Assembly (NCBI GenBank): GCA_030428565.1
Contig: JAUIDR010000009.1
Location: 9,986 to 73,985 of the forward strand
Reading direction: 5' to 3'
From: Alphaproteobacteria bacterium
GTDB taxonomy: Bacteria; Pseudomonadota; Alphaproteobacteria; UBA7985; JAUIBT01
Length of the DNA stretch: 64,000 nt
Below are positions 609 to 56,980 of this stretch, one piece after another. The translations under genes and the position numbers were made by a program. The notes below the pieces were generated by a model, which was not told where the DNA came from, searched no databases, and worked only from the letters and a program-made list of their open reading frames with translations. Numbering within the stretch: position 1 is the first letter of the stretch; the number at the start of each line of letters is the position of its first letter.

Positions 609-635
609 CAGCTTGGTTGCTCGCGCAGGCGGCCC

Positions 636-3658: not shown

Positions 3659-3891
3659 AAGCGAGATTTCCCGCTTATTAGCGTTTGATGTTACGCCATA
3701 AAAATCATGGTGCGAGCGGGCGAATGATAGGTGCGGGCGAACCGCCTCGCTAGCCAACTTCCCAGTATATCCGAATCTCAGAGCAAGCAGCCCGCCGGGC
3801 GCATAAGAGCCGCTTAGCCGAGCCAAAGCTCGCCAACGCGCGTGCCCGCCTTGGGCGCGGCGCCAAGATGCGGCAAAAAAAGCCGGCGCTA

Positions 3892-3999
3892 GCGCAAGCC
3901 CCGAACGAGTGGCAACACGAGTGAGCATGGACTTGCGCTATAAATCAGTCATTTAGAGCGGATGGGCTGTCGATACACCAGCGCCCGACGCTCTAGAGG
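3892..3999 (+). repeat. 105-110-bp intergenic hairpin repeat, copy B
   Basis: Begins GCGCTAGCGCAAGCC and ends CGCTCTAGAGG. Its 3' end abuts and overlaps the stop codon of the Gfo/Idh/MocA gene on the minus strand. Confidence 0.8.
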
Positions 4000-21491: not shown

Positions 21492-21594
21492 CGCAAGCCG
21501 CGAACGAGTGGCAATACGAGTGCGCATGGACTTGCGTTAGACATCAGTCATCTAGAGCAGATGGGCTGTTGCTAATCCCCAGCGCCCAACGCTC
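21488..21594 (+). repeat. 105-110-bp intergenic hairpin repeat, copy C
   Basis: It begins with GCTAGCGCAAGCC, and the uvrB TAG stop codon lies inside the repeat start. Confidence 0.8.
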
Positions 21595-24608: not shown

Positions 24609-24713
24609 TCTAGCGCGTCGGGCGCTGGTATTGCAACAACCCATCCGCTCTAGCTGATTGATCTCTAACGCAAGTCCATGCTCGCTCGTCTTGCCACTCG
24701 TTCGCGGTTTGCG
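24609..24713 (-). repeat. 105-110-bp intergenic hairpin repeat, copy D (inverted orientation)
   Basis: Highly similar to copy A (the 501-608 feature above). Confidence 0.8.
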
Positions 24714-24791
24714 CTAGGCCATTCTTGGCTTGCAAGGCGCATCAGCGATCAGGCCAGCAAACAAGCCAACCCTCACGTCAGCGGTTTGCAG

Positions 24792-36569: not shown

Positions 36570-36641
36570 GCATGGACTTGCGTTAGAAATCAGTCAGCTA
36601 GAGCGGATGGGCTGTTGCGACACCAGCGCCCGACGCTCTGG
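36534..36641 (+). repeat. 105-110-bp intergenic hairpin repeat, copy E
   Basis: Its 5' part is degenerate and overlaps the aminotransferase 3' end. The remainder is about 90% identical to copies B and C. Confidence 0.75.
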
Positions 36642-42075: not shown

Positions 42076-42771
42076 TTAGCGCCAAGTGGTAAAGCGCAGC
42101 TTCATGGTCTTCGGAGAACCCGCGCTTAGCGCCATCAAGCGGAAGGTTGCAACGCGACCTTCGTTGGTCCTTGCGCATAGGCGGGTCCCGACCGGAATAT
42201 CCGCTAGCGACAGACGCGCAGCGCTCATGCGGGCGTTTTTACAACCGTTGAAGTTGGCATTGCCGGCGCCAACGATACCGATCTTGGCCCCATTGCGCGG
42301 CACCAGATAGAGGCGATGCGCGGTCTCGGCCTGGAACCAAACGTCCGCACCGTGCTGATGCACGCCGCCGTCATCCAGATCGAACAAGTAGGTCTGTGGT
42401 ACGGAAAGCTGACCTTGGGTATGGATGGGGTGCAGCAGGTTGCCGATCGGCAAGCAGTTAAAGCCACCGGCGACCGCCGTGCAGACGTTGCCTACCGGAG
42501 CGTTGCGCTGGATGCGACCACCCGCGCCGTTGGGACCGTATTTACATTGCAGGGCGGTTTTGCCGCCGATCTGCACAACTTCGGTCCCGGTCAGGCGCGA
42601 GACGTAGGGCGTACTCCACCAGCCATTGGGCAGATGGGTCGTGACCTCGCGTTTGACTTGTTGGACCGGGCAATTAATCGAGGCGGCGGAGGCCTGACCG
42701 GCCAAAGTCGTCAGCGCAGCGCCAGCCAAAGTGATAAGAAAAAATCGAGAAATACTCTGTGAAAGTCGCAT
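42076..42771 (-). CDS. hypothetical secreted protein, Cys-containing
   Basis: It has the signal peptide MRLSQSISRFFLITLAGAALTTLAGQASA. It is 231 aa and no family was recognised. Confidence 0.5.
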   Translation of the reverse strand: MRLSQSISRFFLITLAGAALTTLAGQASAASINCPVQQVKREVTTHLPNGWWSTPYVSRLTGTEVVQIGGKTALQCKYGPNGAGGRIQRNAPVGNVCTAVAGGFNCLPIGNLLHPIHTQGQLSVPQTYLFDLDDGGVHQHGADVWFQAETAHRLYLVPRNGAKIGIVGAGNANFNGCKNARMSAARLSLADIPVGTRLCARTNEGRVATFRLMALSAGSPKTMKLRFTTWR

Positions 42772-42923
42772 GGGTCGGTTCCTTTTATTGTGTGTGATCT
42801 TGGATATCAAAACACAACTGAACCAAATCTGAACGCTCGTCTGATTGCGGATAGGTATTTCTACGAGGGCGCTCAGCGCAGGCCCAGTCGGCGAGCGCAA
42901 AACGCACCCGCCACACACACGGC

Positions 42924-43754
42924 CTAGCTGGCGTAGTTCGAACCTTCCTCGTCCAAGATGGCCATGAGTTCGCTCATATGCCGCTCGGCCTGGCCGGGGT
43001 AAGTCTCGATCTCATGCGCGGTTTTTTCAGCGATTTCATCGGACAAGACCCGCAGCGGTCGTCCGGTCTGCAGCGCGCGAATATAGGTCTCTGCTGCGCG
43101 CTCAAAATAGTAGAGGCGGTTAAAGGTCTCGGCCACAGTATCTCCGATCACCAGCACACCGTGGTTGCCCATGATCAGCGTTTTGACCTTGGGATCCGCT
43201 AGCAGCGTCGCGCAACGCGCGCCTTCATCCTCGAAGGCGAGACCGCCGAAGTCGTTGTCGATGGCATAGCGGTTAAAGAATGTCGCGGTATTCTGGTCGA
43301 TCGGCGGCATGTTACTGTCTTCCAAGCTGGCCAGTACGGTCGCGTGGATCGAGTGAACGTGCATGAGGCAGCGCGCGTGCGGGCACAGTCGATGCACCGA
43401 GCCGTGCAGGCCCCAGGCGGTCGGATCGGGCGCATCGGGGCGCTCGAGCGTGCTGGGATCGTTGGCATCCAACAGCAGCAGGTCTGAGGCTTTTATGCGG
43501 CGGAAGTGCATCTGGTTGGGGTTCATCAAGAACTGGCTGCCGTCCTCGTTGACCGCCAGGCTGAAATGGTTGGCCACCGCCTCGTGAAAATTGAGGCGCT
43601 CGGTCCAACGAAAGGCCGCCGCCATTTCGATGCGTTGCGGCCAGTGCTGCATATTGGCGCCCAGCGTTGTGCCAGAAGCTGTGCCAGAAGTTTTGTCAGA
43701 AGTTTTGTCAGAAATTTTGCCTGACGTTGGGTTAAGGGCGGTGACGCTGTTCAT
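42924..43754 (-). CDS. class II aldolase/adducin-family protein with a low-complexity N-terminal tail
   Basis: The core has the class II aldolase His ligands (HVHSIHA...). The N-terminus encodes the (T/I)S(D/G)(K/T) repeats from a 12-nt tandem DNA repeat. Confidence 0.7.
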   Translation of the reverse strand: MNSVTALNPTSGKISDKTSDKTSGTASGTTLGANMQHWPQRIEMAAAFRWTERLNFHEAVANHFSLAVNEDGSQFLMNPNQMHFRRIKASDLLLLDANDPSTLERPDAPDPTAWGLHGSVHRLCPHARCLMHVHSIHATVLASLEDSNMPPIDQNTATFFNRYAIDNDFGGLAFEDEGARCATLLADPKVKTLIMGNHGVLVIGDTVAETFNRLYYFERAAETYIRALQTGRPLRVLSDEIAEKTAHEIETYPGQAERHMSELMAILDEEGSNYAS

Positions 43755-43905
43755 GGCTTCCTCCAGGAAAAAAACTGCGCGCAGCATGGCGCACAAAGGC
43801 CTCGATTTACAAACAAAGCTTTTGCAGCCCACTCATAAGTTTTACTAATGCAACGTTTGCGCATAAAGCGAAGCGCTCACCGTGATTTTTTGATGAAAGC
43901 AGCTC

Positions 43906-44811
43906 ATGAAAGCCAAGCGTGCCAGCGCCACCGCTCCCTTTCCGCCGCTGGCCTGGTTGCGTGCCTTTGAGGCGGCGGCGCGTCACCTGTCTTTCACGCT
44001 GGCGGCCAAAGAGCTGAACATGACCCAATCATCGGTCTCTCAACACGTGCGCAATCTGGAACAGTGGTTGGGGCGCGAATTATTCGTGCGCCAGACCCGC
44101 GCCATTGCGCTGACCGAAGCGGGAGCCAACTACCTGCCGGTGGTGCGCGAAGCCTTCGGCGTATTGGCGCGCGGCACCCGCGCTTTCGTCGGCAGCGATC
44201 CCGGCCAAGAGCTGCGCTTGCTCTGCAATTTGACCTTTGCCACCTGGTGGCTAACGCCGCGCCTTGGCCGCCTTATGGCCGCGCACCCTTGGCTACGTTT
44301 GAATATTCAGACCGCCACTTGGGGCGTCGAAGCCCTGGGTACGGGCAGCGGCGGGCTCAATTGGGATCTAGAGATCCGCTTTGGGCGCCCGCACGACATG
44401 TCTGCCTCAGCCGAGTTGTTGCTCGAAGAGACCACCACACCCATTTGCCACCAAGATTTTGCACAAGGCGCGCCGGACTGGCGGCGCGATGCCTTGTTCG
44501 ACTGCGCCGGGGTTGTCTCCAATTGGGAAGCTTGGCTCGATAGCCAGGGCGAGAGCCTGCCGCCGGGCAAGACCATTCATACCGCCTCGACCTATATCAT
44601 TGCCCTGACGGCGGCGGTCAACGGCCACGGCCTGGCACTGGCGCAAGGCTTTATGATCGATAGCCTGTCCCAGACCTTTGACCTGCGCACACCGTTCGCG
44701 CACCGCATGCCCTTGTTTGAGGCCTATTTCTTGCTGCCGCCACCCGACCATCGCCAGACCCCAGCCACCCGCGCTTTCATGGATTGGATTGCAGCCGAGT
44801 TCGCGCGCTAG
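43906..44811 (+). CDS. LysR-family transcriptional regulator
   Basis: It has the N-terminal HTH LSFTLAAKELNMTQSSVSQHVRNLE and a C-terminal LysR substrate-binding domain. Confidence 0.85.
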   Translation: MKAKRASATAPFPPLAWLRAFEAAARHLSFTLAAKELNMTQSSVSQHVRNLEQWLGRELFVRQTRAIALTEAGANYLPVVREAFGVLARGTRAFVGSDPGQELRLLCNLTFATWWLTPRLGRLMAAHPWLRLNIQTATWGVEALGTGSGGLNWDLEIRFGRPHDMSASAELLLEETTTPICHQDFAQGAPDWRRDALFDCAGVVSNWEAWLDSQGESLPPGKTIHTASTYIIALTAAVNGHGLALAQGFMIDSLSQTFDLRTPFAHRMPLFEAYFLLPPPDHRQTPATRAFMDWIAAEFAR

Positions 44812-44925
44812 CGGCAAAACCGCGTCGCATTTGGCGCATTTAGTCGATGGGGGTCGCAATCAAACAAAGGTCCGCGCTTTGCTTGGCGTAGTGCTAAGGA
44901 CATGTTTGCCGACTTAGGAGCCACC

Positions 44926-46086
44926 CGCATGACCAACCTCGCCTCGACGCTGGACATTCTTGATAAGCTCATCGCTTTTCCGACGGTCTCGACCGACAGC
45001 AACCTTGCGCTAATCGACTACTGCTCGGAATACCTGGAAGAGCAGGGCGCGCGCGTGCAGGTTTTCGAAAACGAGGACGGCACAAAGGCCAATTTGTTCG
45101 CGACCCTCGGCCCCGAGGCCGATGGTGGGATTGTGCTGTCCGGTCACTCGGATGTCGTGCCCGCCGAAGAAGAAGGCTGGCAATCCGACCCTTTCCGTAT
45201 GCACGATGACGGCAACCAAGTTTTTGGCCGCGGCACCTGCGATATGAAGGGTTTTATCGCTGCTGTTATGGCGTTGGCGCCCACCTATGCTGACCTGCAA
45301 CTGCGCCGCCCGATCCACTTCAGCTTCACCCACGATGAAGAGACCGGCTGCCTGGGCGCGCAAGACCTAGTGGGCCAATTGCGCGATCAGGGTCTTAAAC
45401 CGGCGGTCGCTATCATCGGCGAACCCACCGAGATGCGCATCATCGAGGGCCACAAGGGATGCTGCGAATACACCACCCACTTCAAGGGCTTGGAAGGCCA
45501 TGGCTCGCAGCCCGATTTGGGTGTGTCAGCGGTCGAGTACGCCACGCGCTACGTCGGGCGCCTGCTGGAACTGCGCGAAGCGCTGAAGCAGCGCAGCCCG
45601 GCCGGCAGCAAATTTGATCCGCCTTGGTCCACCTTGCAAATCGGACGCATCGAGGGCGGCGTCGCACACAACGTCATTGCGGGCGATTGTCGCGTCGATT
45701 GGGAGACGCGCCCGGTCGTGGCCGCCGATCTGGCCTTCGTCAAGCAAGCTATGAAAGACTATTGCGATCAGCAGCTCTTGCCCGCCATGCGCGCCGTCCA
45801 TCCCGATGCGGACATCCTCACTGAAGTAATCGGAGAGGTCGCGGGCCTAGAACCCATGAGCGAAAACGAAGCGCTGCGCCTGGTTCAGGAGCTGACGGGG
45901 GCCAACGCCGCCGACTTGGTGGCCTTTGGCACCGAAGCCGGGCTGTTCCAATCGCTCGGAATGTCGGCGGTGGTCTGCGGTCCAGGCTCGATCCAGCAGG
46001 CGCACAAGGCGAATGAATACGTCTGCTTGGATCAGCTCCAGCGCTGCATCGCCATGCTAGAAGGCTTGCAAACAAAGCTGGTATAG
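44926..46086 (+). CDS. argE: acetylornithine deacetylase (M20 family)
   Basis: It is collinear with E. coli ArgE (GHSDVVP, GRGTCDMKG, GPGSIQQAHKANEY). An RBS AGGAG lies upstream of the ATG at 44926. Confidence 0.8.
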   Translation, partial: RMTNLASTLDILDKLIAFPTVSTDSNLALIDYCSEYLEEQGARVQVFENEDGTKANLFATLGPEADGGIVLSGHSDVVPAEEEGWQSDPFRMHDDGNQVFGRGTCDMKGFIAAVMALAPTYADLQLRRPIHFSFTHDEETGCLGAQDLVGQLRDQGLKPAVAIIGEPTEMRIIEGHKGCCEYTTHFKGLEGHGSQPDLGVSAVEYATRYVGRLLELREALKQRSPAGSKFDPPWSTLQIGRIEGGVAHNVIAGDCRVDWETRPVVAADLAFVKQAMKDYCDQQLLPAMRAVHPDADILTEVIGEVAGLEPMSENEALRLVQELTGANAADLVAFGTEAGLFQSLGMSAVVCGPGSIQQAHKANEYVCLDQLQRCIAMLEGLQTKLV

Positions 46087-46141
46087 GGCCAAGTTGGCGG
46101 CTGTGCGAACCCTCTAGCCAAAGGCAAGGAGAGCCCCCTTC

Positions 46142-49100
46142 ATGGCCGCCAAGCTGTTTTCGACCCGCAAGCGCCCCGCCCACCTGGGCCCCTATGCCTT
46201 GGAGGCGCTGCGCCGCGGGCCCATGGCTGACTTGGCGCGCGCGCCCAAAGACCCTGCCCTGCGCTTTAGCCGCCCGCAAACGCCCGCCCATATCGCCAAC
46301 GCGATGGCCGACTATCAAGCGACCATGGACGCGATCCGTGACGGCTTGGTCAACGGCGCCAGAGCCGAAATCCCAGCCGATCCGCAAACCCGCGCCCGCC
46401 ACCTTAAGGGCTTTGGCTATTTTTCAGACGCCGACATGGTTGGGATCGGGCCACTAGACCCAGCCTGCTTGCGCGAACAGCCGATCCGCAACCCGGAAAT
46501 CGACCGCCTAGCACAAGACCTCAAGACCCGTCAGACCAAGACGCTGGCATCGGGCATTGATGTCATCATGGCCGACCTCAAGGACTCTATGGCCGCCCCG
46601 CCAAGCGGCATCCAGGGCCACCATACTGCGCTTGTCTTTGCCTACGGCTTTGGCCGCGATCCTGGCCGAGGAGAGCCTGGCCGAGGTGAGCCTGGCACCG
46701 CCTGGATCGAAGACGCTCAAGGCGAACGCGCTTGCCTGCGTGCGGCTGAGACCGCTGTCGTCTTGGCCAACTATATCCGTTTGCTGGGCTTTGACGCCAA
46801 GGCCCACACCGGCACATCAAGCGATGTCTGGTTGGGGCGCTTGGCGCTAGCCTCTGGTCTTGCCAGCTTGGAAGAGGGCGAAATCTGTATCCCTTGGCTG
46901 GGCAATCGCTTCGGTCTGGCGGCGATCACCACCAGCCTTGAGCTTGCCCACGACCAACCCCTAGCGCCGCTCGATCAGCAGCCCTATAGCCTAATCGGTG
47001 GGCTCCACTGGCAGCTGGGGAGTAAGTCGGCCAAGTCGGCGGGTACGCAAGATCCCTTTGCCAAGCGTCCCTACGCAAAGGGCCCGCATCCTTTCGAGAC
47101 CCTCAAGCGCGTTGAAGTGCCCACAACCTATATTGATGAAGCCCACGTTGCGCGCGTGCCCAAGCGCACCGACATGTTCGCGCGCGCGCAGTTTGGTGAT
47201 ATGGGCAAGGCCCTGCAAGCCAACGCCGCTGGTGGCTACTATGCGCGCAAGTCTGCGCCTTCTTACGCGCAACGGCGGATGCTGGGCGCTTTTGTTTTGC
47301 TGCAAGATGGTCAGCCCGCCGCCACGCGCCAGCAGCTCGACCCGCAAGAAGCCGCTGATCTGGTCAAGGCCACCAGCTATTTCCTGGGCATCGATGCGGT
47401 CGGCATCTCGCGTTGCCCCCCTTGGGCTTGGTATTCGCACGATGCGACCGGCGCGGTGATCGAGCCCCAGCACGATCAAGCCATTTCCATGATTACGGAC
47501 CAGGGCTTTGAGACCATGGAAGGAGCCAGCGGCGACGATTGGATTTCGGTCGCCCAGTCCATGCGTGCCTATTTGCGCTTTTCGCTGCTCGGCGGGGTGG
47601 TGGCGCGGCAAATCCGCAATTTGGGCTATTCGGCCAAGGCCCACACGGTGATGGATGGCGAGGTGCTGCAACCCCCGCTGCTGTTGCTGTCCGGTTTGGG
47701 CGAGGTCAGCCGCATCGGCGAGGTCATACTCAACCCCTTCTTGGGTCCACGGCTCAAATCGGGCGTGGTGACGACGGACCTACCGATGGCGCACGATGCG
47801 CCGATTGATTTTGGGCTCCAGCGCTTTTGCGAAGCCTGCAACAAGTGCGCGCGCGAGTGCCCCTCGGGGGCCATCACAGCCGGACCCAAACTCATGTTCA
47901 ACGGCTATGAGATTTGGAAATCCGATAGCCAGAAGTGTGCCACATACCGCATCACGACCGAGGGCGGCGCTATGTGTGGGCGCTGCATGAAGACCTGCCC
48001 TTGGAACCTGGAGGGGCTCTTCGCCGAAAAGCCGTTGCGTTGGCTAGCCTCCAACCTGCCCGGCCTGGCCAAGCCGTTGGCCAAGCTGGACGACCTGGCG
48101 GGCAACGGCGGCCTAAACCCGGTCAAAAAATGGTGGTGGGATATCGAATTGTACGAGGACGGGGCCTATCGCGCGGCGCGCAAACCCATCAACGAGCGCG
48201 ATCTGCAGACCGACCTAGACCTGCGTTATGAAGATCAGACACTCGCCGTCTACCCGGCTCCGCTGGCCCCGCCGCCTTGGCCCTACCCCTTCCCTATGAA
48301 CCGAGAGGCGGGCATCGCAGCCTATGAAGCGCTGATTTCCGCCGATGAGCACAAGTCCAAGCTGGCTGCGGGCGATACCAGTCACCTGCACCGCTACCAG
48401 GTGCCAGAAGATGCCCCCGTGCTTGAGGTGAGGGTCACTAAGGCCGAGGCGATGACGCCCGATATCACCAAGTACGAATTCCAACGCCCGGACGGCAGCG
48501 CTTTGCCTGCATGGAGCGCGGGCGCTCACTTGGACATAGTGGTCGCGCCAGAATTCTTGAGACAGTATTCCATGTCGGGCGACCCCGCCGATACCAGCCG
48601 CTATCAAATTGGCGTCTTGCGCGAAGATGAAGGACGCGGCGGCTCAAAGCTGATGCAGCGCATATTTGGTGAGGGACGGCGGGTCTTTATCTCCAGACCC
48701 ATCAACCACTTTGAGCTGGACGAGAGCGCCAGTAAGACCTTTTTGATGGGCGGCGGCATCGGCGTCACGCCCATGATTGCCTTTGCTCACCGATTGCATG
48801 CTCTGGGCAAGGACTTCGCCTTTCACTACTCATGCTCGCGCAGAGATCACGCCGGCTACCTGGACGAACTTGCCGCCGTGGCTTGGGCAGATCGCGTGAG
48901 ATACCATTTTTCTGACGAAGGCAGCCGCGCCGATTTGAATGCCATTTTGGCGGGCTATCAGCCGGGCTGGCATGTCTATACCTGCGGGCCGGATCGCTAC
49001 ATGGACGGGGTCATCGAGGCCGCCGAGCGCCAGGGTTTCCCCGAAGAAGCTCGGCATTTGGAGTATTTCTCAGTACCCGAGCAGCCCGACTATGTGAACC

Positions 49101-49366
49101 GTGCCTTCAAGCTGGAGCTGGCGCGCAGTGGTCAGATACTAGAGGTGCCCGCGGACAAGAGCGCCGCGGACGTATTGATCGAAGCGGGCTTCAAGATCGA
49201 CCTCAAGTGTTCGGACGGCATATGCGGGGTCTGCAAGTGCGACTATATCAGCGGCGCAGTCGAACATCGCGACTTTGTGCTTTCGAATGCTCAGCGCCAG
49301 ACCAGCCTGATAACCTGCCAATCGCGCGCTGCAGAAGAGGACGGCCTGATCGTGTTGGATCTTTAG
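46142..49366 (+). CDS. self-sufficient (catabolic) reductive dehalogenase: RdhA-like cobalamin/2x[4Fe-4S] domain fused to a C-terminal PDR-like flavin reductase with [2Fe-2S] ferredoxin
   Basis: It is 1074 aa with an RBS AAGGAG. The first cluster is CEACNKCARECP. The second is the RdhA-type CxnCx2Cx3CP (CATYRITTEGGAMCGRCMKTCPW). The C-terminus has RxYS flavin, GGGIGVTP NAD(P)H and CSDGICGVCKC plant-type ferredoxin motifs. Confidence 0.75.
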   Translation: MAAKLFSTRKRPAHLGPYALEALRRGPMADLARAPKDPALRFSRPQTPAHIANAMADYQATMDAIRDGLVNGARAEIPADPQTRARHLKGFGYFSDADMVGIGPLDPACLREQPIRNPEIDRLAQDLKTRQTKTLASGIDVIMADLKDSMAAPPSGIQGHHTALVFAYGFGRDPGRGEPGRGEPGTAWIEDAQGERACLRAAETAVVLANYIRLLGFDAKAHTGTSSDVWLGRLALASGLASLEEGEICIPWLGNRFGLAAITTSLELAHDQPLAPLDQQPYSLIGGLHWQLGSKSAKSAGTQDPFAKRPYAKGPHPFETLKRVEVPTTYIDEAHVARVPKRTDMFARAQFGDMGKALQANAAGGYYARKSAPSYAQRRMLGAFVLLQDGQPAATRQQLDPQEAADLVKATSYFLGIDAVGISRCPPWAWYSHDATGAVIEPQHDQAISMITDQGFETMEGASGDDWISVAQSMRAYLRFSLLGGVVARQIRNLGYSAKAHTVMDGEVLQPPLLLLSGLGEVSRIGEVILNPFLGPRLKSGVVTTDLPMAHDAPIDFGLQRFCEACNKCARECPSGAITAGPKLMFNGYEIWKSDSQKCATYRITTEGGAMCGRCMKTCPWNLEGLFAEKPLRWLASNLPGLAKPLAKLDDLAGNGGLNPVKKWWWDIELYEDGAYRAARKPINERDLQTDLDLRYEDQTLAVYPAPLAPPPWPYPFPMNREAGIAAYEALISADEHKSKLAAGDTSHLHRYQVPEDAPVLEVRVTKAEAMTPDITKYEFQRPDGSALPAWSAGAHLDIVVAPEFLRQYSMSGDPADTSRYQIGVLREDEGRGGSKLMQRIFGEGRRVFISRPINHFELDESASKTFLMGGGIGVTPMIAFAHRLHALGKDFAFHYSCSRRDHAGYLDELAAVAWADRVRYHFSDEGSRADLNAILAGYQPGWHVYTCGPDRYMDGVIEAAERQGFPEEARHLEYFSVPEQPDYVNRAFKLELARSGQILEVPADKSAADVLIEAGFKIDLKCSDGICGVCKCDYISGAVEHRDFVLSNAQRQTSLITCQSRAAEEDGLIVLDL

Positions 49367-49515
49367 GGGGCTGGCTTGGTCCTTTTCCAGCGGCGCTGTC
49401 CTAGAGCGCGTTTCGTTGTCTTATCTTCACTGGTCGCGCTCTATAAATTTGAGATTGCTTCAGATGCACCTAGCGAACCTTTGGCACAATCCAGGGCGAT
49501 TGCTCGGGCTTTGCC

Positions 49516-51036
49516 CTAGCCCCGGATCTTGCTTGGTCCGTCGGCCATGAGGGCCTCTAGGAGTTTCAGGGAGTCTGCAAATCCTTGGTCTGCGGCCTTG
49601 CGTATCCAGATCATCGCCTTTTGACGATCTTTTTCAACGCCTTGCCCTTGCAAATACATGACCCCGAGATTGTGCTGGGACCCAGCCACGCCTTGCTCGG
49701 CGGCTTTGCGAAACCAATACGCGGCCTGGCGGTCATTTTGCGTCACGCCTTGGGCGAATAAGTAGGAAAAGCCAAGGTTGTGCTGCGCGTTTGCCATTCC
49801 CTGATCTGCCGCTTTGCGATACCAATCGACCGAGCTTTCGTAATCTTGGTCAACGCCCCAACCGCGTTCGTAAAATAAGCCGAGGTAGTACTGAGACTGA
49901 GCCAAGCCTTGGTCGGCCGCTTTGCGATACAAATCAGCAGCCTTTTCGTAACTTTGCAGCACCCCACGGCCCTCTTGATACATGAGCGCTAGGTTGTATT
50001 GAGACTCGGCATAGCCTTGATCGGCGGCCTTGCGATACAAAAGGGCTGCGGTTGCCGCGCTTTTGCCCACACCTTCGCCGCGCTCATACAGATAGCCAAG
50101 GCCATGTTGAGACTCGGCATGGCCTTGATCTGCCGCTTTGCGTAACCACATGACCGCTTCTTCAAGGTCACGCGCAACGCCCCGCCCCTGAACAAGCATG
50201 ATCGCGAGGATGTGCTGAGAGTCGGCGAGACCCTGTATGGCGGCCTTGCGATACCACACAGACGCTGATGCGTCGCTTTTGACCACGCCTTTACCGCGCT
50301 CATACAAATAGCCAAGATTGTGCTGGGACCGGGCATAACCTTGGCGTGCGGCTTTGCGCAACCAGGCGGATGCTTCTTCATCGCTTTGTGCCACTCCGCG
50401 CCCCTCAAGGTACAGGTTCGCTAGCTTGTGCTGCGCGCGGGCATAGCCTTGATCGGCCGCTTTGCGATACCACAGGGCTGCTGCTGCTTCATCCTGATCA
50501 ACACCATCGCCCGTCTCATACAAAGACGCTAGGTCATATTGAGCGCCACTATGTCCCTGCATCGCGGCTCGATGAAACCATTTGAACGCTTCATTGGGAT
50601 CTTTCGAAAACCCATTGCCGAAAAAATAGCCGACCCCGACCCTGTATTGCGCATCGCGATCCCGTCGCTCGGCCGCCATGAGGTACCAGCGGTTTGCCTT
50701 GGTCAGGTTTGGTTCAAGGCCCGTCCCTTTTTCAAAAAAGTACCCCAGCAAAAATTGCGCCTGTGCATGTCCTTTCACCGCCGCTTTGCGAAGCCACTTC
50801 GCGGCCTGTATTTCATCTTTCTCAACGCCAATACCGTTTAGGTAAAAGACTGCCAACTCCAGCTGGGCCGCCGCCACCCCTCGCTTTGCCAAAAGTCGAG
50901 TGCTCTCGATCCTTTGAGTCGAGACTTGAGCTTCAAGTTGAATTTTCGTTTGGCCCTGAGCCTGAGCCACAAAGCAAGATAGGGCCGCTGCCAGAAATAT
51001 GACGATGCGCGTTTTCAACGGGAAGTCCTCGCCCAT
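49516..51036 (-). CDS. Sel1-repeat (SLR/TPR-like) protein, secreted
   Basis: It has about 13 tandem Sel1 repeats (A..W.RKAA.QG...AQ..LG.Y) and a signal peptide. The start was chosen at MGEDF (51036). Confidence 0.8.
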   Translation of the reverse strand: MGEDFPLKTRIVIFLAAALSCFVAQAQGQTKIQLEAQVSTQRIESTRLLAKRGVAAAQLELAVFYLNGIGVEKDEIQAAKWLRKAAVKGHAQAQFLLGYFFEKGTGLEPNLTKANRWYLMAAERRDRDAQYRVGVGYFFGNGFSKDPNEAFKWFHRAAMQGHSGAQYDLASLYETGDGVDQDEAAAALWYRKAADQGYARAQHKLANLYLEGRGVAQSDEEASAWLRKAARQGYARSQHNLGYLYERGKGVVKSDASASVWYRKAAIQGLADSQHILAIMLVQGRGVARDLEEAVMWLRKAADQGHAESQHGLGYLYERGEGVGKSAATAALLYRKAADQGYAESQYNLALMYQEGRGVLQSYEKAADLYRKAADQGLAQSQYYLGLFYERGWGVDQDYESSVDWYRKAADQGMANAQHNLGFSYLFAQGVTQNDRQAAYWFRKAAEQGVAGSQHNLGVMYLQGQGVEKDRQKAMIWIRKAADQGFADSLKLLEALMADGPSKIRG

Positions 51037-51249
51037 GGGAGTTTGCCGAAACCACCAGAGCTTGCCCCGTTTTAAACCCAGGCATTGCATGCTCCAGAGT
51101 TTAGAACCCTAGGCCAAATACCCTACGTTTGCAATCTACATTTATGTTTATTGAAGCGCTACTACGTAACCATCACACCGGCAGCCGCGCGCTCAGGCCT
51201 TGGTTTCTAACGCAAGGCCATGCGCCTAGATGCCTCCTGTTGGCCGCCG

Positions 51250-52245
51250 CTAGGCCACCTCGGGCGTACCGTGAGTATGGAAGCTCTCGATGGTCTTGAG
51301 GCCCCAGGCCTGGCCCTTCTTGCGCTCGCTCTCGGTCCAGGTCACCGGCTGCCAGTCGGGACGCAGGATGAGGCGCGCGCCCGCATTGGCCAATTCGACC
51401 CGGTTGCCGGCGGGCTCCCAGACATAGAGGAAAAAGGTGCCCTGAACCGCGTGCTTGTGCGGGCCTGTCTCGATATGAACGCCATTCTCCAAGAAGATAT
51501 CCGCCGCACGCAAAATGTCTTCACGTTGGTCGGTGGCATAAGTGACATGGTGAAAGCGATTGCAGGCCTGCTTGTGATCCACCGTCACCGCAATGTCGTA
51601 GGATTTGTTGTTGACCGTAAACCAACAGCCCGCCAATTGGCCGCTGTCGAGCTGAATTTGCTCGGTCACGCGCGAGCCCAGACAGGCCATCATGAAGTCG
51701 CGGAAATCTTCGACCGAGCGCACCAGAAGATTGAGGTGATCCAAGCGGCGCGGACAACAGCCACGACCGTGGTAGCGCTGAGCCAAGTTCTTGAGCGCCG
51801 GGCGCTCGGCTTCAGGCGCTTGATAGGGATGGGTATCCCAGTAAATTTCAAACTCATGATCGTCGGGTGATTTGAAGCGATAGGCGCGACCATGGCTGAG
51901 GTCACCTTCGATCCACTCACCGGCAAAACCCGCTGCTTCAATCGCCGCGACCCGCCGCTCTAGCGCCGCCGCCGAGCTGGTACGATAGGCAATGTGGCCG
52001 ACGCCGGTGGTCTCGCTGCGTGTCAGCTTCAACGTGGCGTACTCGTAATCGTCGAACGCGCGCAGATAGGCCGAGGTCTCGTCGCGCCCGCTCTCGGTCA
52101 ACCCATAGACACGGGTAAAGAAATCGAGGCTCTCTTCGAACTTATCAGTCAACACTTCGACATGTGCCAAGTGGGCAATATCAAAGCAGGGTTCGCCATT
52201 TGAGATCGGGGTATCTTTCTGCGTATCTTTCTGGGTATCGGTCAT
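51250..52245 (-). CDS. catechol 2,3-dioxygenase-type extradiol ring-cleavage dioxygenase (VOC superfamily)
   Basis: The C-terminal half is collinear with XylE-type C23O (HHVTYATDQ...LRAADIF...GP.KH...PVTWT). The N-terminal TQKDTQKD comes from a 12-nt duplication. Confidence 0.75.
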   Translation of the reverse strand: MTDTQKDTQKDTPISNGEPCFDIAHLAHVEVLTDKFEESLDFFTRVYGLTESGRDETSAYLRAFDDYEYATLKLTRSETTGVGHIAYRTSSAAALERRVAAIEAAGFAGEWIEGDLSHGRAYRFKSPDDHEFEIYWDTHPYQAPEAERPALKNLAQRYHGRGCCPRRLDHLNLLVRSVEDFRDFMMACLGSRVTEQIQLDSGQLAGCWFTVNNKSYDIAVTVDHKQACNRFHHVTYATDQREDILRAADIFLENGVHIETGPHKHAVQGTFFLYVWEPAGNRVELANAGARLILRPDWQPVTWTESERKKGQAWGLKTIESFHTHGTPEVA

Positions 52246-52399
52246 AGCTGTGGCTTCCTTCCTTAGGCAACCCCGAACAACTGGCTCGAGTTGTGGCGGC
52301 AAATTGGAGAGGCCTCAGGCTAGCCAATCTGGCCGGGCGCGCAGAATCAATTCTGCCTCCCAGCCTTCCAAAAAAGCTATAGTGCGGCGTGCAGGCGCC

Positions 52400-52966
52400 T
52401 TAGGATTGGGCCAACACCAAGGCTTGTGCGACGATGACCTGATCGCCATTGGTGGTCAGCGACGGCGTGCCGTGCAAGACGTAACCATCCGCCAAGGCCG
52501 CTGAGACGCGCTCGCAAAAGCTGCGATCATCCGGCCCGGTCAAAACGCGATAAGCCAGTTTGGTCTCGCGCTCTGCTTCCTCACCGCTGCCGACCTGCTT
52601 TTCTTCGATGCGAAACCGCGCGTTGGCATCGTCCACGGTCTCCCACGCCAGACGTTGCCACTCCTTCTTAGCCGCCTCATAGCTGTCAAAGGGGCCGTAG
52701 TGCTGCTCACTGGCGCTTTGGTCGAAGTCGGTGCTCTCGTAGACGCCGCCTACGACCCAAAACTCGGGCTCATCAGGCTGCTCGACACTCTCAATCGTAA
52801 AGTAGGATTGGCAGTCGTCTACGGTTTGCCAAGCCAAGCCTTGCCAAACTTTTTGCGCAGACTCATAGCTGTCAAAGGGGCCGAACTGCTGTTCCTTTTC
52901 GCCGGGGGCTAAGGTCGTAAAGCTGGTGTCGGTATAATTACCGCCCTTTACCCAAAATCGTTTCAT
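52400..52966 (-). CDS. tandem DUF4170-DUF4170-DUF1737 protein
   Basis: Two homologous roughly 60-aa modules (FWV.GG.Y...GPFDSYE.A...W..LAW.TVDD) are followed by a DUF1737-like tail (ALADGYVLHG). Confidence 0.6.
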   Translation of the reverse strand: MKRFWVKGGNYTDTSFTTLAPGEKEQQFGPFDSYESAQKVWQGLAWQTVDDCQSYFTIESVEQPDEPEFWVVGGVYESTDFDQSASEQHYGPFDSYEAAKKEWQRLAWETVDDANARFRIEEKQVGSGEEAERETKLAYRVLTGPDDRSFCERVSAALADGYVLHGTPSLTTNGDQVIVAQALVLAQS

Positions 52967-53049
52967 TTGCTCGTCTCTCAAAAGTGAGGGGCTTATTGCC
53001 CTCAATTGTGGCCTTGGTTGCGGAAAAGCCCGCTATCGAGCCCGCGCCG

Positions 53050-54462
53050 CTAGCGCGGCACAAAAAAGTCTGCGCGCAATCCGCCCATAGGCGATTGCCC
53101 GAGTTCTAGCCTTCCGCCGTGGGCAAGAGCAATGTCTAATGTAATAGACAAGCCCAAGCCAACCCCGCCCGTGGCTTCGTTGCGGCTCTCTTCAAGGCGA
53201 AAGAACGGCTGCAAGACCTCATCACGCCGATGCTCTGGAATGCCGGGGCCGTCGTCATCGACACGGATCATCAAGCCGGTTCTGTCGGCCGACAAGGTGA
53301 TACGAATGCGCGAGGCAAAGCGTTGGGCGTTGACCACCAGATTTTCCACCGCCCGCCGCACGGCTTGCGGCATGACCATGGCCTCATAGGGCCCAAGCAG
53401 CGTTCTGGCTTCTTCATCGTCATCATCACCCAACAAGGCCCCAGGATCGGGACCATCGCCAGCACCAGCCGCGCGCGGCAAGTTGGCCGCCTTGACCGGT
53501 TGTAACACCAATTGCAGCTCGCTTGGACCGGTGTTGGCTTCGACGATCTTTCGCAGCATGACCGACAAATCGCGGCGCTCCAGCGCTTCCACCCCCTCGC
53601 CGCGCGCAAAGGCTAAGTAGCCCTCGATCATGGCCTCCATATCCTTGATGTCGGCTTCGACCGCCTCGCGGGTCTCATCGTCGTTGCTCATGGCCAGCGC
53701 CAAGCGCATACGGGTCAAAGGCGTGCGCAGATCGTGGCTGACCCCGGCCAGCATGCGAGTGCGCTGGGTCACTTGGCGACGCAGACGGTCGCGCATACCG
53801 ATAAAGGCGGTGGCAGCCTGGCGGACCTCACTGGCGCCTTCTGCTTTAAAGCGTGCCACGTCGCGGCCCTTGCCAAATTCCTCTGCTGCGTGCGCCAGGC
53901 GGTGAATGGGGCGCACCTGATTGCGCCAAAACAGGCCCGCGACACCGAATAGCAAGAAGCCCGCGCCCAAAAACCAGGATAAGAAGATGTAAATGGTGGT
54001 CGAGAACAGGCGCTTACGGCTGATCCAAAAGGTGAGATAGGTCGGATCTTCCCACTTCAGCGCGATATGCACCAAGACCTCGCCTTCCTGGCTCACTTCG
54101 TCGATGGAAAAGGGGCGGTCCACCTTGGCCAGGCCCTGCGACAGGCGCGCGCGCAACGCAGTGGGCGTCAAAAGCGTCCAACCCTTGCCCACCGTTCGTG
54201 GCAAAGCGCCTTCATGCAAGCTCACCTTGAGGCCCATGGTGTGCGCGGCCAAGCTAAAGATAGCCTGTTGTTCGGAGGCAAGGCTCGTGTCTTCGACCAT
54301 CAGCACCAGCGCGTGCATCTCCGAAGACAGGGAGCTGGCCAAGCGCTTGGTCACAACCTGCCAGTGCCGGTCATAAAAGACCCAAGAGGCAATGATCTGC
54401 ATGAGCAACAAGGGCGTCATGATTATCAGCACCGAACGCCACCACAAAGAGCGCGGCATCAC
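53050..54462 (-). CDS. two-component sensor histidine kinase (EnvZ-like)
   Basis: It has two TM segments, a HAMP domain, a HisKA H-box GVSHDLRTPLTRMRL and an HATPase_c region with a GGVGLGLSI G-box. Confidence 0.88.
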   Translation of the reverse strand: MMPRSLWWRSVLIIMTPLLLMQIIASWVFYDRHWQVVTKRLASSLSSEMHALVLMVEDTSLASEQQAIFSLAAHTMGLKVSLHEGALPRTVGKGWTLLTPTALRARLSQGLAKVDRPFSIDEVSQEGEVLVHIALKWEDPTYLTFWISRKRLFSTTIYIFLSWFLGAGFLLFGVAGLFWRNQVRPIHRLAHAAEEFGKGRDVARFKAEGASEVRQAATAFIGMRDRLRRQVTQRTRMLAGVSHDLRTPLTRMRLALAMSNDDETREAVEADIKDMEAMIEGYLAFARGEGVEALERRDLSVMLRKIVEANTGPSELQLVLQPVKAANLPRAAGAGDGPDPGALLGDDDDEEARTLLGPYEAMVMPQAVRRAVENLVVNAQRFASRIRITLSADRTGLMIRVDDDGPGIPEHRRDEVLQPFFRLEESRNEATGGVGLGLSITLDIALAHGGRLELGQSPMGGLRADFFVPR

Positions 54463-54512
54463 CCCTTTGAAGACCGAAAAGGGGCGCCCGGCGAGCCTGA
54501 GATATTGGCGCG

Positions 54513-55205
54513 TTAGTCGCTTAGCAGCACGTAGCCAACGCCGCGTATGGTCTGTAAGTAGCGTGGGAATCTTGGATTTTCCTCAATCTTGCGCCGCAGA
54601 CGTGCGATTTGAACGTCGATGGAGCGGGTGGTGACATCACCGCTGCCATCGCCCAATTCTTCGCGGGCCACGGCCTCGCCCGAGGCCTTGGCCAGTTGCA
54701 TGAGTAACTGCGATTCGCCCGGCGCCAAGCGCACCAGCGCCTCGCCCTCGTGGAGTTCAGCGCGGTCCATATCAAAGCGAAAGCGCCCGAAGGTGATGGA
54801 GTTGGCGGGCGCAACATCGGTGGCCTGGGGCGGACCGGCTTGACGTCGCAAAATGCTGCGCAATCGCGCCACCAACTCACGCGGATCGAAGGGCTTGGAT
54901 AGATAATCGTCCGCGCCCAGCTCCAGGCCGCCAATCCGATCATCGGCTTCGCCCTTGGCGCTGATGAGCAGCACCGGCATGTCGGAAGATTTGCGCAACG
55001 ATTCGATAAAACTGAGCCCGGTCTCACCCGGCATCATGATATCAAGCACCATGGCATCAAAGGCGATTGATTGCATCAATTGACGCGCCGCTTGCGCCGA
55101 GGCAGCGACCGAGACCACAAAGCCATTATCCCGCAAAAAGCGCTGCAGCAGCGCGCGCAAGCGGTCGTCGTCATCAACAACAAGGACGTGGTCACAGCTT
55201 TCCAT
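54513..55205 (-). CDS. OmpR-family response regulator
   Basis: It has the receiver domain VLVVDDD...DAMVLDIMMPG and a C-terminal winged-helix trans_reg_C domain. It is 230 aa. Confidence 0.9.
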   Translation of the reverse strand: MESCDHVLVVDDDDRLRALLQRFLRDNGFVVSVAASAQAARQLMQSIAFDAMVLDIMMPGETGLSFIESLRKSSDMPVLLISAKGEADDRIGGLELGADDYLSKPFDPRELVARLRSILRRQAGPPQATDVAPANSITFGRFRFDMDRAELHEGEALVRLAPGESQLLMQLAKASGEAVAREELGDGSGDVTTRSIDVQIARLRRKIEENPRFPRYLQTIRGVGYVLLSD

Positions 55206-55223
55206 AACGGCAGCCTATGCGCT

Positions 55224-55778
55224 TTAGCGGCGGCGGTCTAGTGGGCGATTGGCGACGCTGGCACTCCCTTTGGAGCGAAGGGCGCGCGGTTGCGGCGCTG
55301 GCGCAGCAAATCGGGCTCGATCCAAGGGCTCCTGGATCAGGCCTAGCATGACTTTCCGAAAACCATCAACCGAGCTGGCTTCGGCTTGCTCGTAGGCGCT
55401 GAGGATCAGATCTTGCTGGGCCTTGGCCAAACGGTTTTGCAAATCCTGGCCCTTGTCCGTAAGGGTCAACTCGCGCCGCCGTGCATCCTGTCCTGAGGCC
55501 TTGGAAGTCACATAGCCCTGCTCGACCAACTGCTTCAGCACGCGTGATAGCGATTGTTTGGTAATTCGCAAGGTGGCCAATAGCTCCGACACGCTGAGCC
55601 CTGGCGATTGGGCGACGAAGTGCAGCACGCGATGGTGCGCGCGCCCGAATCCGTGCTCTGCCAGCAGGGCATCGGCCACGCCGGTAAAATCGCGGTAGGC
55701 AAAAAACAGCAACTCGACCGCTTCGTGCAAAGAATCTTCGTGCAAGAACAAGCTTGCGTGTTTTTTTGGGTCAGCCAT
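55224..55778 (-). CDS. MarR-family transcriptional regulator
   Basis: It has a wHTH region, LSVSELLATLRITKQSLSRVLKQLVEQGYV. It is 184 aa. Confidence 0.85.
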   Translation of the reverse strand: MADPKKHASLFLHEDSLHEAVELLFFAYRDFTGVADALLAEHGFGRAHHRVLHFVAQSPGLSVSELLATLRITKQSLSRVLKQLVEQGYVTSKASGQDARRRELTLTDKGQDLQNRLAKAQQDLILSAYEQAEASSVDGFRKVMLGLIQEPLDRARFAAPAPQPRALRSKGSASVANRPLDRRR

Positions 55779-55870
55779 ATTGACTTAATATTTTGCCCTT
55801 GTAGGCTTTGATTAGGGTATGCCTCAATGAGGGCGTTCGAGGAAAGGATTGGAAGCTTGTCTGATGGCGA

Positions 55871-55887
55871 TTGACATATTCTGTCAA
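55871..55887. promoter_or_regulatory. 17-bp perfect palindrome TTGACATATTCTGTCAA, candidate MarR operator
   Basis: It lies in the divergent intergenic region between the marR-like gene (-) and ilvE (+). It is a dyad of 6-bp arms, which suits a dimeric wHTH regulator. Confidence 0.4.
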
Positions 55888-56022
55888 GCCTCCTTTATCT
55901 TTTGACACAAAACGCAAACCCGGCAAACACTTAGCAACCGCTAGCCGCAAACAAGGGCCAAGGGCAAGATTGGGGAGCAACCACCGATCTGCACCGACCG
56001 TCCAAAACCATCGAGAGAACGC

Positions 56023-56883
56023 ATGTCTATTCTGCCTTTTGACGACCGTGACGGTACGATTTGGATGAACGGCCAGCTCAAGAGCTGGCGCGATTGCAAG
56101 ACCCATGTATTGACCCATGGCCTGCACTATGGCTCGTCGGTCTTTGAGGGCGAGCGCTCCTATGGCGGGAAGGTCTTCAAGCTGGAAGAGCACACCCAGC
56201 GCTTGTTTGACTCCGCCAAGCTGATGGACATGAAAATCCCCTTCAGCCAGCAAGAAATCAATGAAGCCTGCTATCGCGTGTTGGAAGCCAACAACATCGT
56301 TGACGGCTATCTGCGCCCCGTGGCGTGGCGTGGTTCTGAGATGATGGCGGTCTCTGCGCAGAACACCAAGATCCACGTCGCGATTGCGGCTTGGTCTTGG
56401 CCTGCTTACTTCAAAAACGAAGCCATTTCCCTGGGCTGGGCCAAGTACCGCCGCCCCTCGCCGGAATCGGCACCCGTTCACGCCAAGGCAGCAGGTCTTT
56501 ATATGATCTGTACCCTGTCTAAGCACGAGTGTGAGAGCCAAGGCTTTGACGATGCACTGATGTTGGACTATCGCGGCCAAGTCGCCGAGGCCACCGGCGC
56601 TAACGTCTTCTTCATCAAAGATGGTGAGCTGCACACGCCCATCGCCGATTGCTTCTTGAACGGTATCACCCGCCGCACCGTGATTGAGCTGGCACAAGGT
56701 CTTGGCATCAAGGTCAATGAGCGCGTCATCATGCCCGAAGAACTGCCCGACATGCAGGAGTGTTTCCTGGTCGGCACGGCGGTCGAGGTCAAGCCGGTCG
56801 CCCGCATTGGGGACATTTCCTTCCAGGTTGGTGAGATTTCCAACAAGCTGATGGAAGCCTACAGCGCCCTGGTCCGCAGCTAA
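56023..56883 (+). CDS. ilvE: branched-chain-amino-acid aminotransferase (PLP fold type IV)
   Basis: Contains YGSSVFEGER, YLRPVAWRG and a conserved class IV aminotransferase core. It is 286 aa. Confidence 0.8.
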   Translation: MSILPFDDRDGTIWMNGQLKSWRDCKTHVLTHGLHYGSSVFEGERSYGGKVFKLEEHTQRLFDSAKLMDMKIPFSQQEINEACYRVLEANNIVDGYLRPVAWRGSEMMAVSAQNTKIHVAIAAWSWPAYFKNEAISLGWAKYRRPSPESAPVHAKAAGLYMICTLSKHECESQGFDDALMLDYRGQVAEATGANVFFIKDGELHTPIADCFLNGITRRTVIELAQGLGIKVNERVIMPEELPDMQECFLVGTAVEVKPVARIGDISFQVGEISNKLMEAYSALVRS

Positions 56884-56980
56884 GCCACGCAGCTTGCCGA
56901 TCACAAGATAAACGCCGCAACGCCCTTGATTAAGCGCCGCAACGCCCCGGGCCATGCGGCATTGCCAAAAGGCCTCGTCG

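Follow-up and report, generated by a model that had tools for sequence, protein, structure and literature searches.

A predicted cobalamin-dependent reductive dehalogenase fused to its own NAD(P)H reductase, encoded on an alphaproteobacterial contig

The window analyzed here is a stretch of 64,000 nucleotides from an alphaproteobacterial genome (assembly GCA_030428565.1, contig JAUIDR010000009.1, positions 9,986 to 73,985 of the forward strand), and its rdhA gene is the subject of this report. The gene is a single uninterrupted open reading frame (ORF) with an ATG start which, according to the ORF listing and translation, is intact and encodes 1074 amino acids (aa). A Shine-Dalgarno sequence, AAGGAGAG, rated good, lies 8 nt upstream of the start, and homologues found by protein search span 100% of the ORF length. 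The product is best explained as a cobalamin (B12)-dependent dehalogenase of the RdhA type fused to its own NAD(P)H reductase of the phthalate dioxygenase reductase (PDR) type, as in BhbA and JtRdhA; we put the probability of this explanation as a whole at about 0.82. The features of the gene are as follows.

46142..49366, plus strand: rdhA, the predicted RdhA-PDR fusion (matches to 4RAS, 2PIA and TIGR02486; 71.6% identity to JtRdhA, WP_104007082; identical to P0121)
46142..48391, plus strand: RdhA module, aa 1-750, an N-terminal region followed by the cobalamin and 2x[4Fe-4S] catalytic core (phmmer against 4RAS)
46463..46615, plus strand: insertion of ~42 aa relative to NpRdhA, at aa 108-158 (51 residues of the window protein opposite 9 of NpRdhA)
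46661..46696, plus strand: 15-nt tandem duplication, 2.4 copies, encoding PGRGE-PGRGE-PG (Tandem Repeats Finder, 95% matches, score 65)
47558..47572, plus strand: codons Ser473 to Tyr477, whose end positions correspond to NpRdhA S422 and Y426 (alignment; both positions invariant in 30 homologues)
47756..47758, plus strand: codon of Lys539, corresponding to NpRdhA K488 of the Tyr-Lys dyad (alignment, motif check and conservation in 30 homologues)
47828..47863, plus strand: first [4Fe-4S] motif, C563-E-A-C-N-K-C-A-R-E-C-P574 (CEACNKCARECP, aa 563-574; regular expression; invariant in 30 homologues)
47936..48001, plus strand: second [4Fe-4S] motif, C599-x12-C612-x2-C615-x3-C619-P620 (regular expression; invariant in 30 homologues)
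47948-47950, plus strand: codon of Arg603, equivalent to NpRdhA R552, inside the second [4Fe-4S] motif (alignment)
48404..49363, plus strand: PDR/VanB-type reductase module, aa 755-1074 (2PIA residues 3-320, E value 1.5e-53)
48560-48571, plus strand: flavin mononucleotide (FMN) site RQYS, aa 807 (motif search)
48749-48772, plus strand: NAD(P)H site GGGIGVTP, aa 870 (motif search)
49208-49318, plus strand: plant-type [2Fe-2S] site C1023/C1028/C1031/C1059 (C1023-x4-C1028-x2-C1031-x27-C1059, within CSDGICGVCKC)

A sequence search of the PDB divides the protein cleanly into two modules. Residues 1 to 750 match the catabolic dehalogenase NpRdhA (4RAS and 6ZXU; E value of 3.9e-156 for 4RAS with phmmer), and residues 755 to 1073 match phthalate dioxygenase reductase itself (2PIA, E value of 1.5e-53). 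The NCBIfam reductive dehalogenase model TIGR02486 scores 180.5 bits and passes its curated cutoff of 160.35, whereas the model for QueG, TIGR00276, reaches 21.5 bits against a cutoff of 200, in a match confined to aa 502 to 584. A sequence-only reading of this DNA had proposed an RdhA module joined to a PDR-type reductase. These matches bear it out: QueG is excluded, the C-terminal homology to PDR-type reductases is confirmed, and all motifs that it quoted (the Fe-S motifs, the flavin motif RxYS in the form RQYS, GGGIGVTP and CSDGICGVCKC) are found on the translation.

Within the RdhA module, phmmer aligns aa 4 to 107 with residues 2 to 102 of NpRdhA and aa 159 to 750 with residues 112 to 702. 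The N-terminal part of NpRdhA is described as a vestigial duplicate of the cobalamin-binding domain that renders the enzyme monomeric (PMC10463259), and its counterpart is recognizable here at the sequence level only, by alignment to that part of NpRdhA. The stretch at aa 108 to 158 is conserved in JtRdhA, the RdhA of Ruegeria pomeroyi and BhbA, and we infer that it may be the fusion-specific insert modelled by Fisher et al. as folding over the active site (PMC10463259). The first [4Fe-4S] motif has the spacing C563-x2-C-x2-C-x3-C573-P, and Pfam families Fer4_16 and Fer4_7 span aa 563 to 622. Crystallography and mutagenesis of NpRdhA assigned hydroxyl binding and carbon protonation to S422, Y426, K488 and R552: S422 binds the substrate hydroxyl, Y426 is the proton donor and the K488Q variant is inactive (PMC7565698). 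The equivalents in the window protein, S473, Y477, K539 and R603, are all present, and the catalytic residues and all cluster cysteines are invariant across the 30-sequence family alignment. Among 12 positions that form the NpRdhA pocket, 11 carry the same residue in the window protein and JtRdhA.

The reductase module also matches the PDR-type domains of the self-sufficient P450s 6LAA and 6KBH. Pfam Fer2 spans aa 993 to 1063, and the RQYS and GGGIGxTP motifs are invariant or nearly so across the 30 homologues. Homology, domain order and every cofactor-binding and catalytic motif are thus present in the window protein. At its N-terminus (MAAKLFSTRKRPAHLGPYALEALRRGPMADL) there is neither a twin-arginine motif of the form S/T-R-R-x-F-L-K nor a hydrophobic stretch, and the 149 bp between the rdhA stop codon and the next, convergent gene leave no room for an rdhB gene.

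Full-length identities to characterized enzymes, taken from a MAFFT alignment, are 71.6% to JtRdhA (73.7% in the RdhA core and 73.0% in the PDR module), 72.5% to R. pomeroyi RdhA, 49.7% to BhbA and, over 581 aligned residues, ~44% to NpRdhA; the last two comparisons had been proposed in the sequence-only reading and agree with it. JtRdhA (WP_104007082) was confirmed as P0104 among the 120 best protein clusters. This enzyme, from Jhaorihella thermophila, was expressed and characterized by Fisher et al. 2023 (PMC10463259). It contains cobalamin, two [4Fe-4S] clusters, one [2Fe-2S] cluster and FMN, and it catalyzes tightly coupled, NADPH-dependent debromination and deiodination of phenolics under aerobic and anaerobic conditions, with chlorinated analogues acting only as competitive inhibitors (PMC10463259).

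The gene product is therefore very likely to be a cytoplasmic, oxygen-tolerant, self-sufficient catabolic reductive dehalogenase, orthologous to JtRdhA and R. pomeroyi RdhA and, more distantly, to BhbA. Its cofactor content, electron path, substrate class and activity are predicted by homology to follow those of JtRdhA and NpRdhA, and the 71.6% identity to JtRdhA suggests base-off cobalamin and NAD(P)H-dependent dehalogenation of ortho-halogenated phenols. Hydride from NAD(P)H would pass to the FMN of the C-terminal module, from which single electrons would travel first to the [2Fe-2S] cluster, next to the two [4Fe-4S] clusters of the RdhA module and finally to base-off cobalamin. An ortho-halogenated phenolic would bind with its hydroxyl held by Ser473, Lys539 and Arg603 and its halogen on the cobalt; the carbon-halogen bond would then be reduced, and Tyr477, in a dyad with Lys539, would protonate the carbon. 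By analogy with the characterized relatives, its substrates are most likely to be brominated or iodinated phenolics, e.g., 3,5-dibromo-4-hydroxybenzoate and bromophenols.

A search with the Pfam reductive dehalogenase family PF13486, also proposed in the sequence-only reading, gave no match to the window protein at an E value of ≤0.1; at that threshold, only Fer4 families, Fer2 and DmmA-like_N were found. Nor does PF13486 appear in the precomputed Pfam list of any of the 120 homologues, among them JtRdhA. The model does not cover the catabolic RdhA-PDOR subfamily, and its absence is no argument against RdhA membership; because it is blind to the subfamily, Pfam-based surveys will undercount these enzymes. 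Many of the 120 best clusters already carry the RefSeq/UniRef name "reductive dehalogenase", and P0121, the NCBI protein identical to the window protein, is encoded on a 78.6-kb contig and has no name. In several RefSeq records, close homologues go under no more specific name than "2Fe-2S iron-sulfur cluster-binding protein" or "4Fe-4S dicluster domain-containing protein".

The earlier reading described the RdhA-PDR architecture as known from a handful of aerobic degraders, which holds for characterized enzymes only. Most catabolic RdhAs carry a PDOR domain (Fisher et al. 2023, PMC10463259). A species-level genome scan (one genome per species) returned at least 599 matching stretches, at least 589 of them encoding a relative. 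All 80 loci kept for comparison contain full-length copies with 69 to 90% identity; at least 80 of the species-level genomes therefore have a full-length relative. The kept loci come from Ruegeria, Shimia, Thalassovita, Tritonibacter, Maritimibacter, Oricola, Nitratireductor, Aquibium and Hongsoonwoonella, with one from a Granulosicoccus metagenome-assembled genome (MAG), and the 120 best protein clusters are equally uniform (~1040 to 1078 aa, 69 to 90% identity, coverage of ≥96%). The architecture is not rare, and the window protein is an ordinary member of a characterized type that is common in marine alphaproteobacteria.

The 15-nt in-frame duplication recognized in the sequence-only reading was recovered, and the coordinates quoted there, 46661 to 46690, coincide exactly with P174 to E183; a synonymous change of one base (GGA versus GGT) is all that distinguishes the two full copies. 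The five additional residues are missing from all six aligned homologues, i.e., P0001 (90%), P0002 (85%), JtRdhA, R. pomeroyi RdhA, BhbA and NpRdhA, which have PSTDE, PKADE, PEPGE, PEADE, PSADE and PEAGE at this site. The repeat is therefore a true insertion rather than a chance repetition. It lies in the N-terminal half, in a region that aligns with the N-terminal part of NpRdhA, and the stretch is hydrophilic and variable among orthologues. In a low-confidence AlphaFold2 model, aa 170 to 188 have no secondary structure, and the predicted local distance difference test score (pLDDT) is <50 at residues 173 to 178. The best reading is a tolerated, recent and neutral insertion in a variable loop. 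That the duplication marks a loop thus stands, and the solvent exposure implied by the earlier term "surface loop" is plausible, with indirect support.

The genes and features around rdhA are listed below; L081 is a syntenic relative at 84% identity.

42924-43832, minus strand: class II aldolase (domain scans)
43906-44811, plus strand: LysR family regulator, GcvA-like (Pfam HTH_1 and LysR_substrate; PRK11139 GcvA, 192 bits, under its cutoff)
44929-46086, plus strand: M20 family, ArgE-like deacylase (PRK07522, 467 bits, and TIGR01892, 391 bits, both above cutoff)
49393..49409, plus strand: weak terminator-like hairpin, 27 nt after the rdhA stop, with a 5-bp stem and T-rich tail (consensus scan)
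49368..52408, minus strand: 3.0-kb segment missing from L081, with the Sel1-repeat and extradiol dioxygenase genes (blastn against L081)
49516-51090, minus strand: Sel1-repeat protein (Sel1 Pfam match)
51250-52302, minus strand: type I extradiol dioxygenase (TIGR03211, 308 bits versus a cutoff of 320; PDB 9WGJ, E value 6.6e-106, and 3LM4, E value 7.4e-58)
52400-53005, minus strand: DUF4170/DUF1737 protein (domain scans)
53050-54462, minus strand: histidine kinase (domain scans)
54513-55205, minus strand: response regulator (domain scans)

Upstream of rdhA, the LysR and M20 genes are co-directional with it. The gaps are 117 and 55 bp once the M20 start is revised from 44902 to 44929, where a TTAGGAG ribosome-binding site just before the ATG opens a frame of 385 aa; P0136, also 385 aa, is 100% identical to this protein. 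The M20 protein scores 391 bits with the TIGR01892 acetylornithine deacetylase equivalog (cutoff, 298), and its best structural relative is an E. coli-type ArgE, the acetylornithine deacetylase 7RSF (E value of 1.7e-50). Besides the window, the order LysR, M20, rdhA is found only in the closest relatives, L001 (90%) and L081/L082 (84%). Orthologues of the M20 protein are very many in Rhodobacterales (64 to 70% identical), and tblastn over the other 79 genome-scan loci gave one match, weak (26% identity) and on the opposite strand. A scan of the region for promoters and terminators found sites no more numerous than in shuffled sequence, and an Rfam scan of the window found no match. The rdhA and ArgE-like deacylase genes probably form a lineage-specific transcription unit downstream of the LysR-type regulator gene.

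Three sampled genomes (L084, L085/L086 and L087/L088) have M20 orthologues 68 to 70% identical to that of the window beside an AsnC regulator gene, with ornithine-cyclodeaminase-like, PALP, M24 (creatinase-like), class III aminotransferase or aldehyde dehydrogenase genes around them. Neither rdhA nor this LysR gene occurs in these three contexts, which resemble catabolic clusters for ectoine or other amino-acid derivatives rather than arginine biosynthesis. As a conserved partner of rdhA beyond the immediate lineage, the M20 gene was rejected on the tblastn comparison of the 80 loci and the three orthologue contexts. About 25 genome-scan loci, mostly from Ruegeria (e.g., L005, L006 and L007), have a divergent LysR gene 76 bp upstream of rdhA and, after rdhA, genes for a three-subunit CoxM/CoxS/CoxL-like molybdenum hydroxylase (FAD, 2Fe-2S and molybdopterin subunits). 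LysR-type regulators near rdhA are thus recurrent, with a divergent LysR gene counted directly upstream of rdhA in 24 loci, mostly from Ruegeria; these proteins are not orthologous to that of the window, with only ~30% identity.

Downstream, the extradiol dioxygenase gene lies 1.9 kb from rdhA on the opposite strand and is convergent with it, and the Sel1-repeat gene stands between them. By blastn, window positions 43930 to 49367 correspond to L081 5802 to 11238 and window positions 52409 to 56886 to L081 11246 to 15685, and in L081 the DUF4170 gene directly follows rdhA. The blocks nearly abut in L081, which identifies 49368 to 52408 as a clean 3.0-kb indel; on the L081 side, positions 11239 to 11245 face it. 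We do not regard this segment as belonging to the dehalogenase system. At 55.6%, the Sel1 gene is somewhat lower in GC than the window as a whole (mean, 59.4%). A further difference is a fatty-acid desaturase gene that L081 carries upstream of the aldolase gene and the window lacks (L081 3748-4800 versus window 42835-42920). A literature search found no paper on PDB entry 9WGJ, the structure that matches the dioxygenase best.

A homologue of the dioxygenase occurs in the rdhA flanks of only one of the 80 genome-scan loci, L026 (an Oricola MAG; 70% identity), and the gene is not a conserved partner of rdhA, an association that was considered and rejected. Positions 7953 to 15762 of L026 carry, on the same strand and with short gaps, rdhA, an unknown ORF of 293 aa, a gene resembling catechol-2,3-dioxygenase, an LmbE/BshB-type deacetylase gene and a 4-oxalomesaconate tautomerase gene, with a GntR-family gene upstream of rdhA. 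The arrangement has the appearance of a true operon for aromatic catabolism that includes rdhA. When the remaining large ORFs in the 64 kb were scanned for domains, the scans identified uvrB, genes for sugar and other ABC transporters, GMC and DAO oxidoreductases, HAD hydrolases, a U32 peptidase and a caspase-like protein. The same scans revealed no aromatic or phenol hydroxylase, no semialdehyde dehydrogenase or hydrolase, no hydratase and no meta-pathway aldolase. A dedicated haloaromatic cluster, such as the bhb cluster of plasmid pBHB, was not found in the window, where a lone dioxygenase gene lies convergent and within the indel.

Several points weigh against the assignment of the window protein as a functional, JtRdhA-like debrominase. 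Its activity rests on homology, and cobalamin binding is not readable from a sequence motif. The substrate scope is extrapolated from one well-studied fusion enzyme, and Fisher et al. called it unclear whether fusion enzymes are restricted in their scope to bromo compounds (PMC10463259). The odd pocket position is Ala368 in the window protein and Val in JtRdhA. The AlphaFold2 model of the full protein, built from the 30-sequence alignment, is poor (mean pLDDT of 63.9 and predicted template modelling score, pTM, of 0.51), with a pLDDT of <50 over the Fe-S and active-site regions, and adds no structural support. The PGRGE duplication of five residues is present, and only the 55-bp spacing and the absence of a terminator match suggest co-transcription with the M20 gene.

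The duplication, missing from all six homologues compared, raises the question of whether it, or another lineage-specific change, disrupts folding and leaves the protein inactive or impaired. We consider this very improbable, since the insertion is in frame, is hydrophilic (Pro, Gly, Arg and Glu) at a stretch that varies among orthologues, and falls within the N-terminal half, at a large sequence distance from the catalytic core; no catalytic or cofactor residue is lost, and the two 15-nt copies differ by a single synonymous change. Still less probable, to the point of being negligible, is that the N-terminal module is a QueG or a respiratory RdhA rather than a catabolic one. QueG and RdhAs have the class III cobalamin fold in common, and weak matches exist both to TIGR00276 (21.5 bits) and to the respiratory enzyme PceA (4UQU; E value of 3.7e-28 over aa 471 to 665). 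However, the TIGR00276 score is far under its cutoff of 200 while the reductive dehalogenase model passes its own, which rules out QueG; the match to NpRdhA extends over ~700 residues at 3.9e-156, compared with 1e-28 for PceA; and the lack of a twin-arginine translocation (TAT) leader and of an adjacent rdhB gene, together with the fused reductase, rules out a respiratory RdhA of the PceA/CprA type.

The remaining alternatives concern the role of the enzyme and turn on its neighbours. The sequence-only reading placed rdhA in an aromatic-catabolic neighbourhood, with a LysR regulator upstream, an extradiol dioxygenase downstream and a route from halophenol through catechol to ring cleavage. Both neighbours are present, but that reading did not mention that M20 and Sel1-repeat genes intervene and that the dioxygenase gene is on the minus strand. 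That rdhA is the entry step of a local pathway of this kind, under the upstream LysR regulator, is unlikely. The dioxygenase gene is only 1.9 kb away, the Comamonas bhb cluster has ligAB extradiol dioxygenase genes just upstream of bhbA, and in L026 rdhA is followed by co-oriented genes for the 70%-identical dioxygenase and 4-oxalomesaconate tautomerase. In the window, however, the gene is convergent with rdhA beyond the Sel1-repeat gene, belongs to a segment cleanly missing from L081 and has a counterpart at 1 of the 80 loci, and the M20 gene, not rdhA, immediately follows the LysR gene. Reductive dehalogenation yields a phenol and not a catechol, so that a hydroxylase would also be needed before extradiol cleavage, and neither an aromatic hydroxylase nor meta-pathway genes were found in the 64 kb. 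The proposed route cannot be read from the window locus. Occurrence of the family within ring-cleavage clusters in some cases (pBHB and L026) fits a catabolic role in general. A rather less likely proposal is that, in this uncultured alphaproteobacterial lineage, rdhA was recruited into an operon with the ArgE-like N-acyl-amino-acid deacylase gene under the GcvA-like LysR regulator, the deacylase and debrominase acting in sequence on N-acylated halogenated aromatic amino-acid derivatives, e.g., marine metabolites of the N-acetyl-bromotyrosine type, in a salvage of bromotyrosine derivatives from algae or sponges. This would agree with the co-directional arrangement with gaps of 117 and 55 bp, kept in three relatives at 84 to 90% identity, and an unrelated LmbE/BshB-type deacetylase gene is present in the rdhA operon of L026. 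Yet the M20 protein passes the acetylornithine deacetylase equivalog cutoff, many of its Rhodobacterales orthologues are not beside rdhA, the other 79 loci hold only the one weak match on the opposite strand, and at 84 to 90% identity the gene order may just reflect recent common ancestry. Doubtful as it is, such a salvage function would, if true, give catabolic RdhAs a physiological role and a class of substrates that have so far not been described for them.

Other features of the window were noted. A dispersed repeat of ~85 nt has five copies, at 543-621 (minus), 3886-3951 (plus), 21485-21556 (plus), 24649-24718 (minus) and 36533-36602 (plus). It is an imperfect palindrome whose 31-nt core, GAGTGGCAAYACGAGYGMGCATGGACTTGCG, occurs 5 times versus 0 expected; it has no Rfam match, its fold z-scores are only -0.9 to -2.5, and it looks like a repetitive extragenic palindromic (REP) element or a miniature inverted-repeat transposable element (MITE). 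In the 90% relative L001, a copy lies directly 3' of rdhA (11244-11313), a position at which the window has none. The ORF at 52400-53005 (minus) encodes two DUF4170 stretches and a DUF1737 domain, has no NCBIfam match and lies directly upstream of the histidine kinase/OmpR-type response regulator pair in both the window and L081. Two ORFs, 42076-42918 (minus, 280 aa) and 55771-56955 (minus, 394 aa), have no Pfam match; the former also has no NCBIfam match and is conserved in L001 (84% aa identity) and L081 (~68% nucleotide identity).

The window adds to the family one more intact and probably functional gene for an oxygen-tolerant, NAD(P)H-driven debrominase. The family is of interest for bioremediation of brominated phenolics (bromoxynil and tetrabromobisphenol A [TBBPA]) and for marine organobromine cycling. 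How its members are built, how they work and how widely they occur in marine alphaproteobacteria has been documented before, and close homologues are correctly named by annotation pipelines. The neighbourhoods of rdhA vary strongly between lineages, which makes inference of a pathway from a single neighbouring gene unsafe.

Among known systems, the respiratory enzyme PceA (4UQU) has the core of cobalamin and two [4Fe-4S] clusters in common with the window protein. Respiratory RdhAs are oxygen-sensitive dimers with a TAT signal and an RdhB membrane anchor, whereas the window protein lacks the TAT and RdhB features and has an additional N-terminal region and a reductase. That reductase (the C-terminal 320 aa) aligns end to end with 2PIA and the P450-fused 6LAA and 6KBH, in the order FMN, NAD, [2Fe-2S], but is fused to a cobalamin enzyme, whereas its relatives serve a Rieske oxygenase or P450. 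Ros_A3X954, a Roseobacter debrominase (PMC13101508), was considered as the closest known relative and rejected; it belongs to a distinct RdhA type of short proteins and has its Fe-S motifs at residues 283 to 345.

NpRdhA (Nitratireductor pacificus pht-3B; 4RAS and 6ZXU) has a homologous N-terminal region and core and shares the Tyr-Lys dyad, Arg and Ser, but it is naturally truncated, with no fused reductase and with separate redox partners (PMC10463259), and lacks the insertion found at aa 108 to 158. BhbA of the bromoxynil pathway (Comamonas sp. 7D-2, plasmid pBHB, WP_015585978) is the same RdhA-PDOR fusion, and its Fe-S, FMN, NAD and 2Fe-2S motifs are all common to the window protein. Its gene is plasmid borne in a dedicated catabolic cluster, where ligAB and a gene for a TTT-family binding protein precede bhbA; rdhA of the window, in contrast, has no such cluster and lies in a chromosomal-looking region that includes uvrB. 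JtRdhA (WP_104007082) resembles the window protein in length class (1069 versus 1074 aa), domain order, identical catalytic Tyr, Lys, Arg and Ser residues and the ~42-aa insertion relative to NpRdhA. The window protein differs from it in the extra PGRGE repeat, in Ala368 in place of Val and in host lineage, its nearest relatives being from unclassified alphaproteobacterial MAGs.

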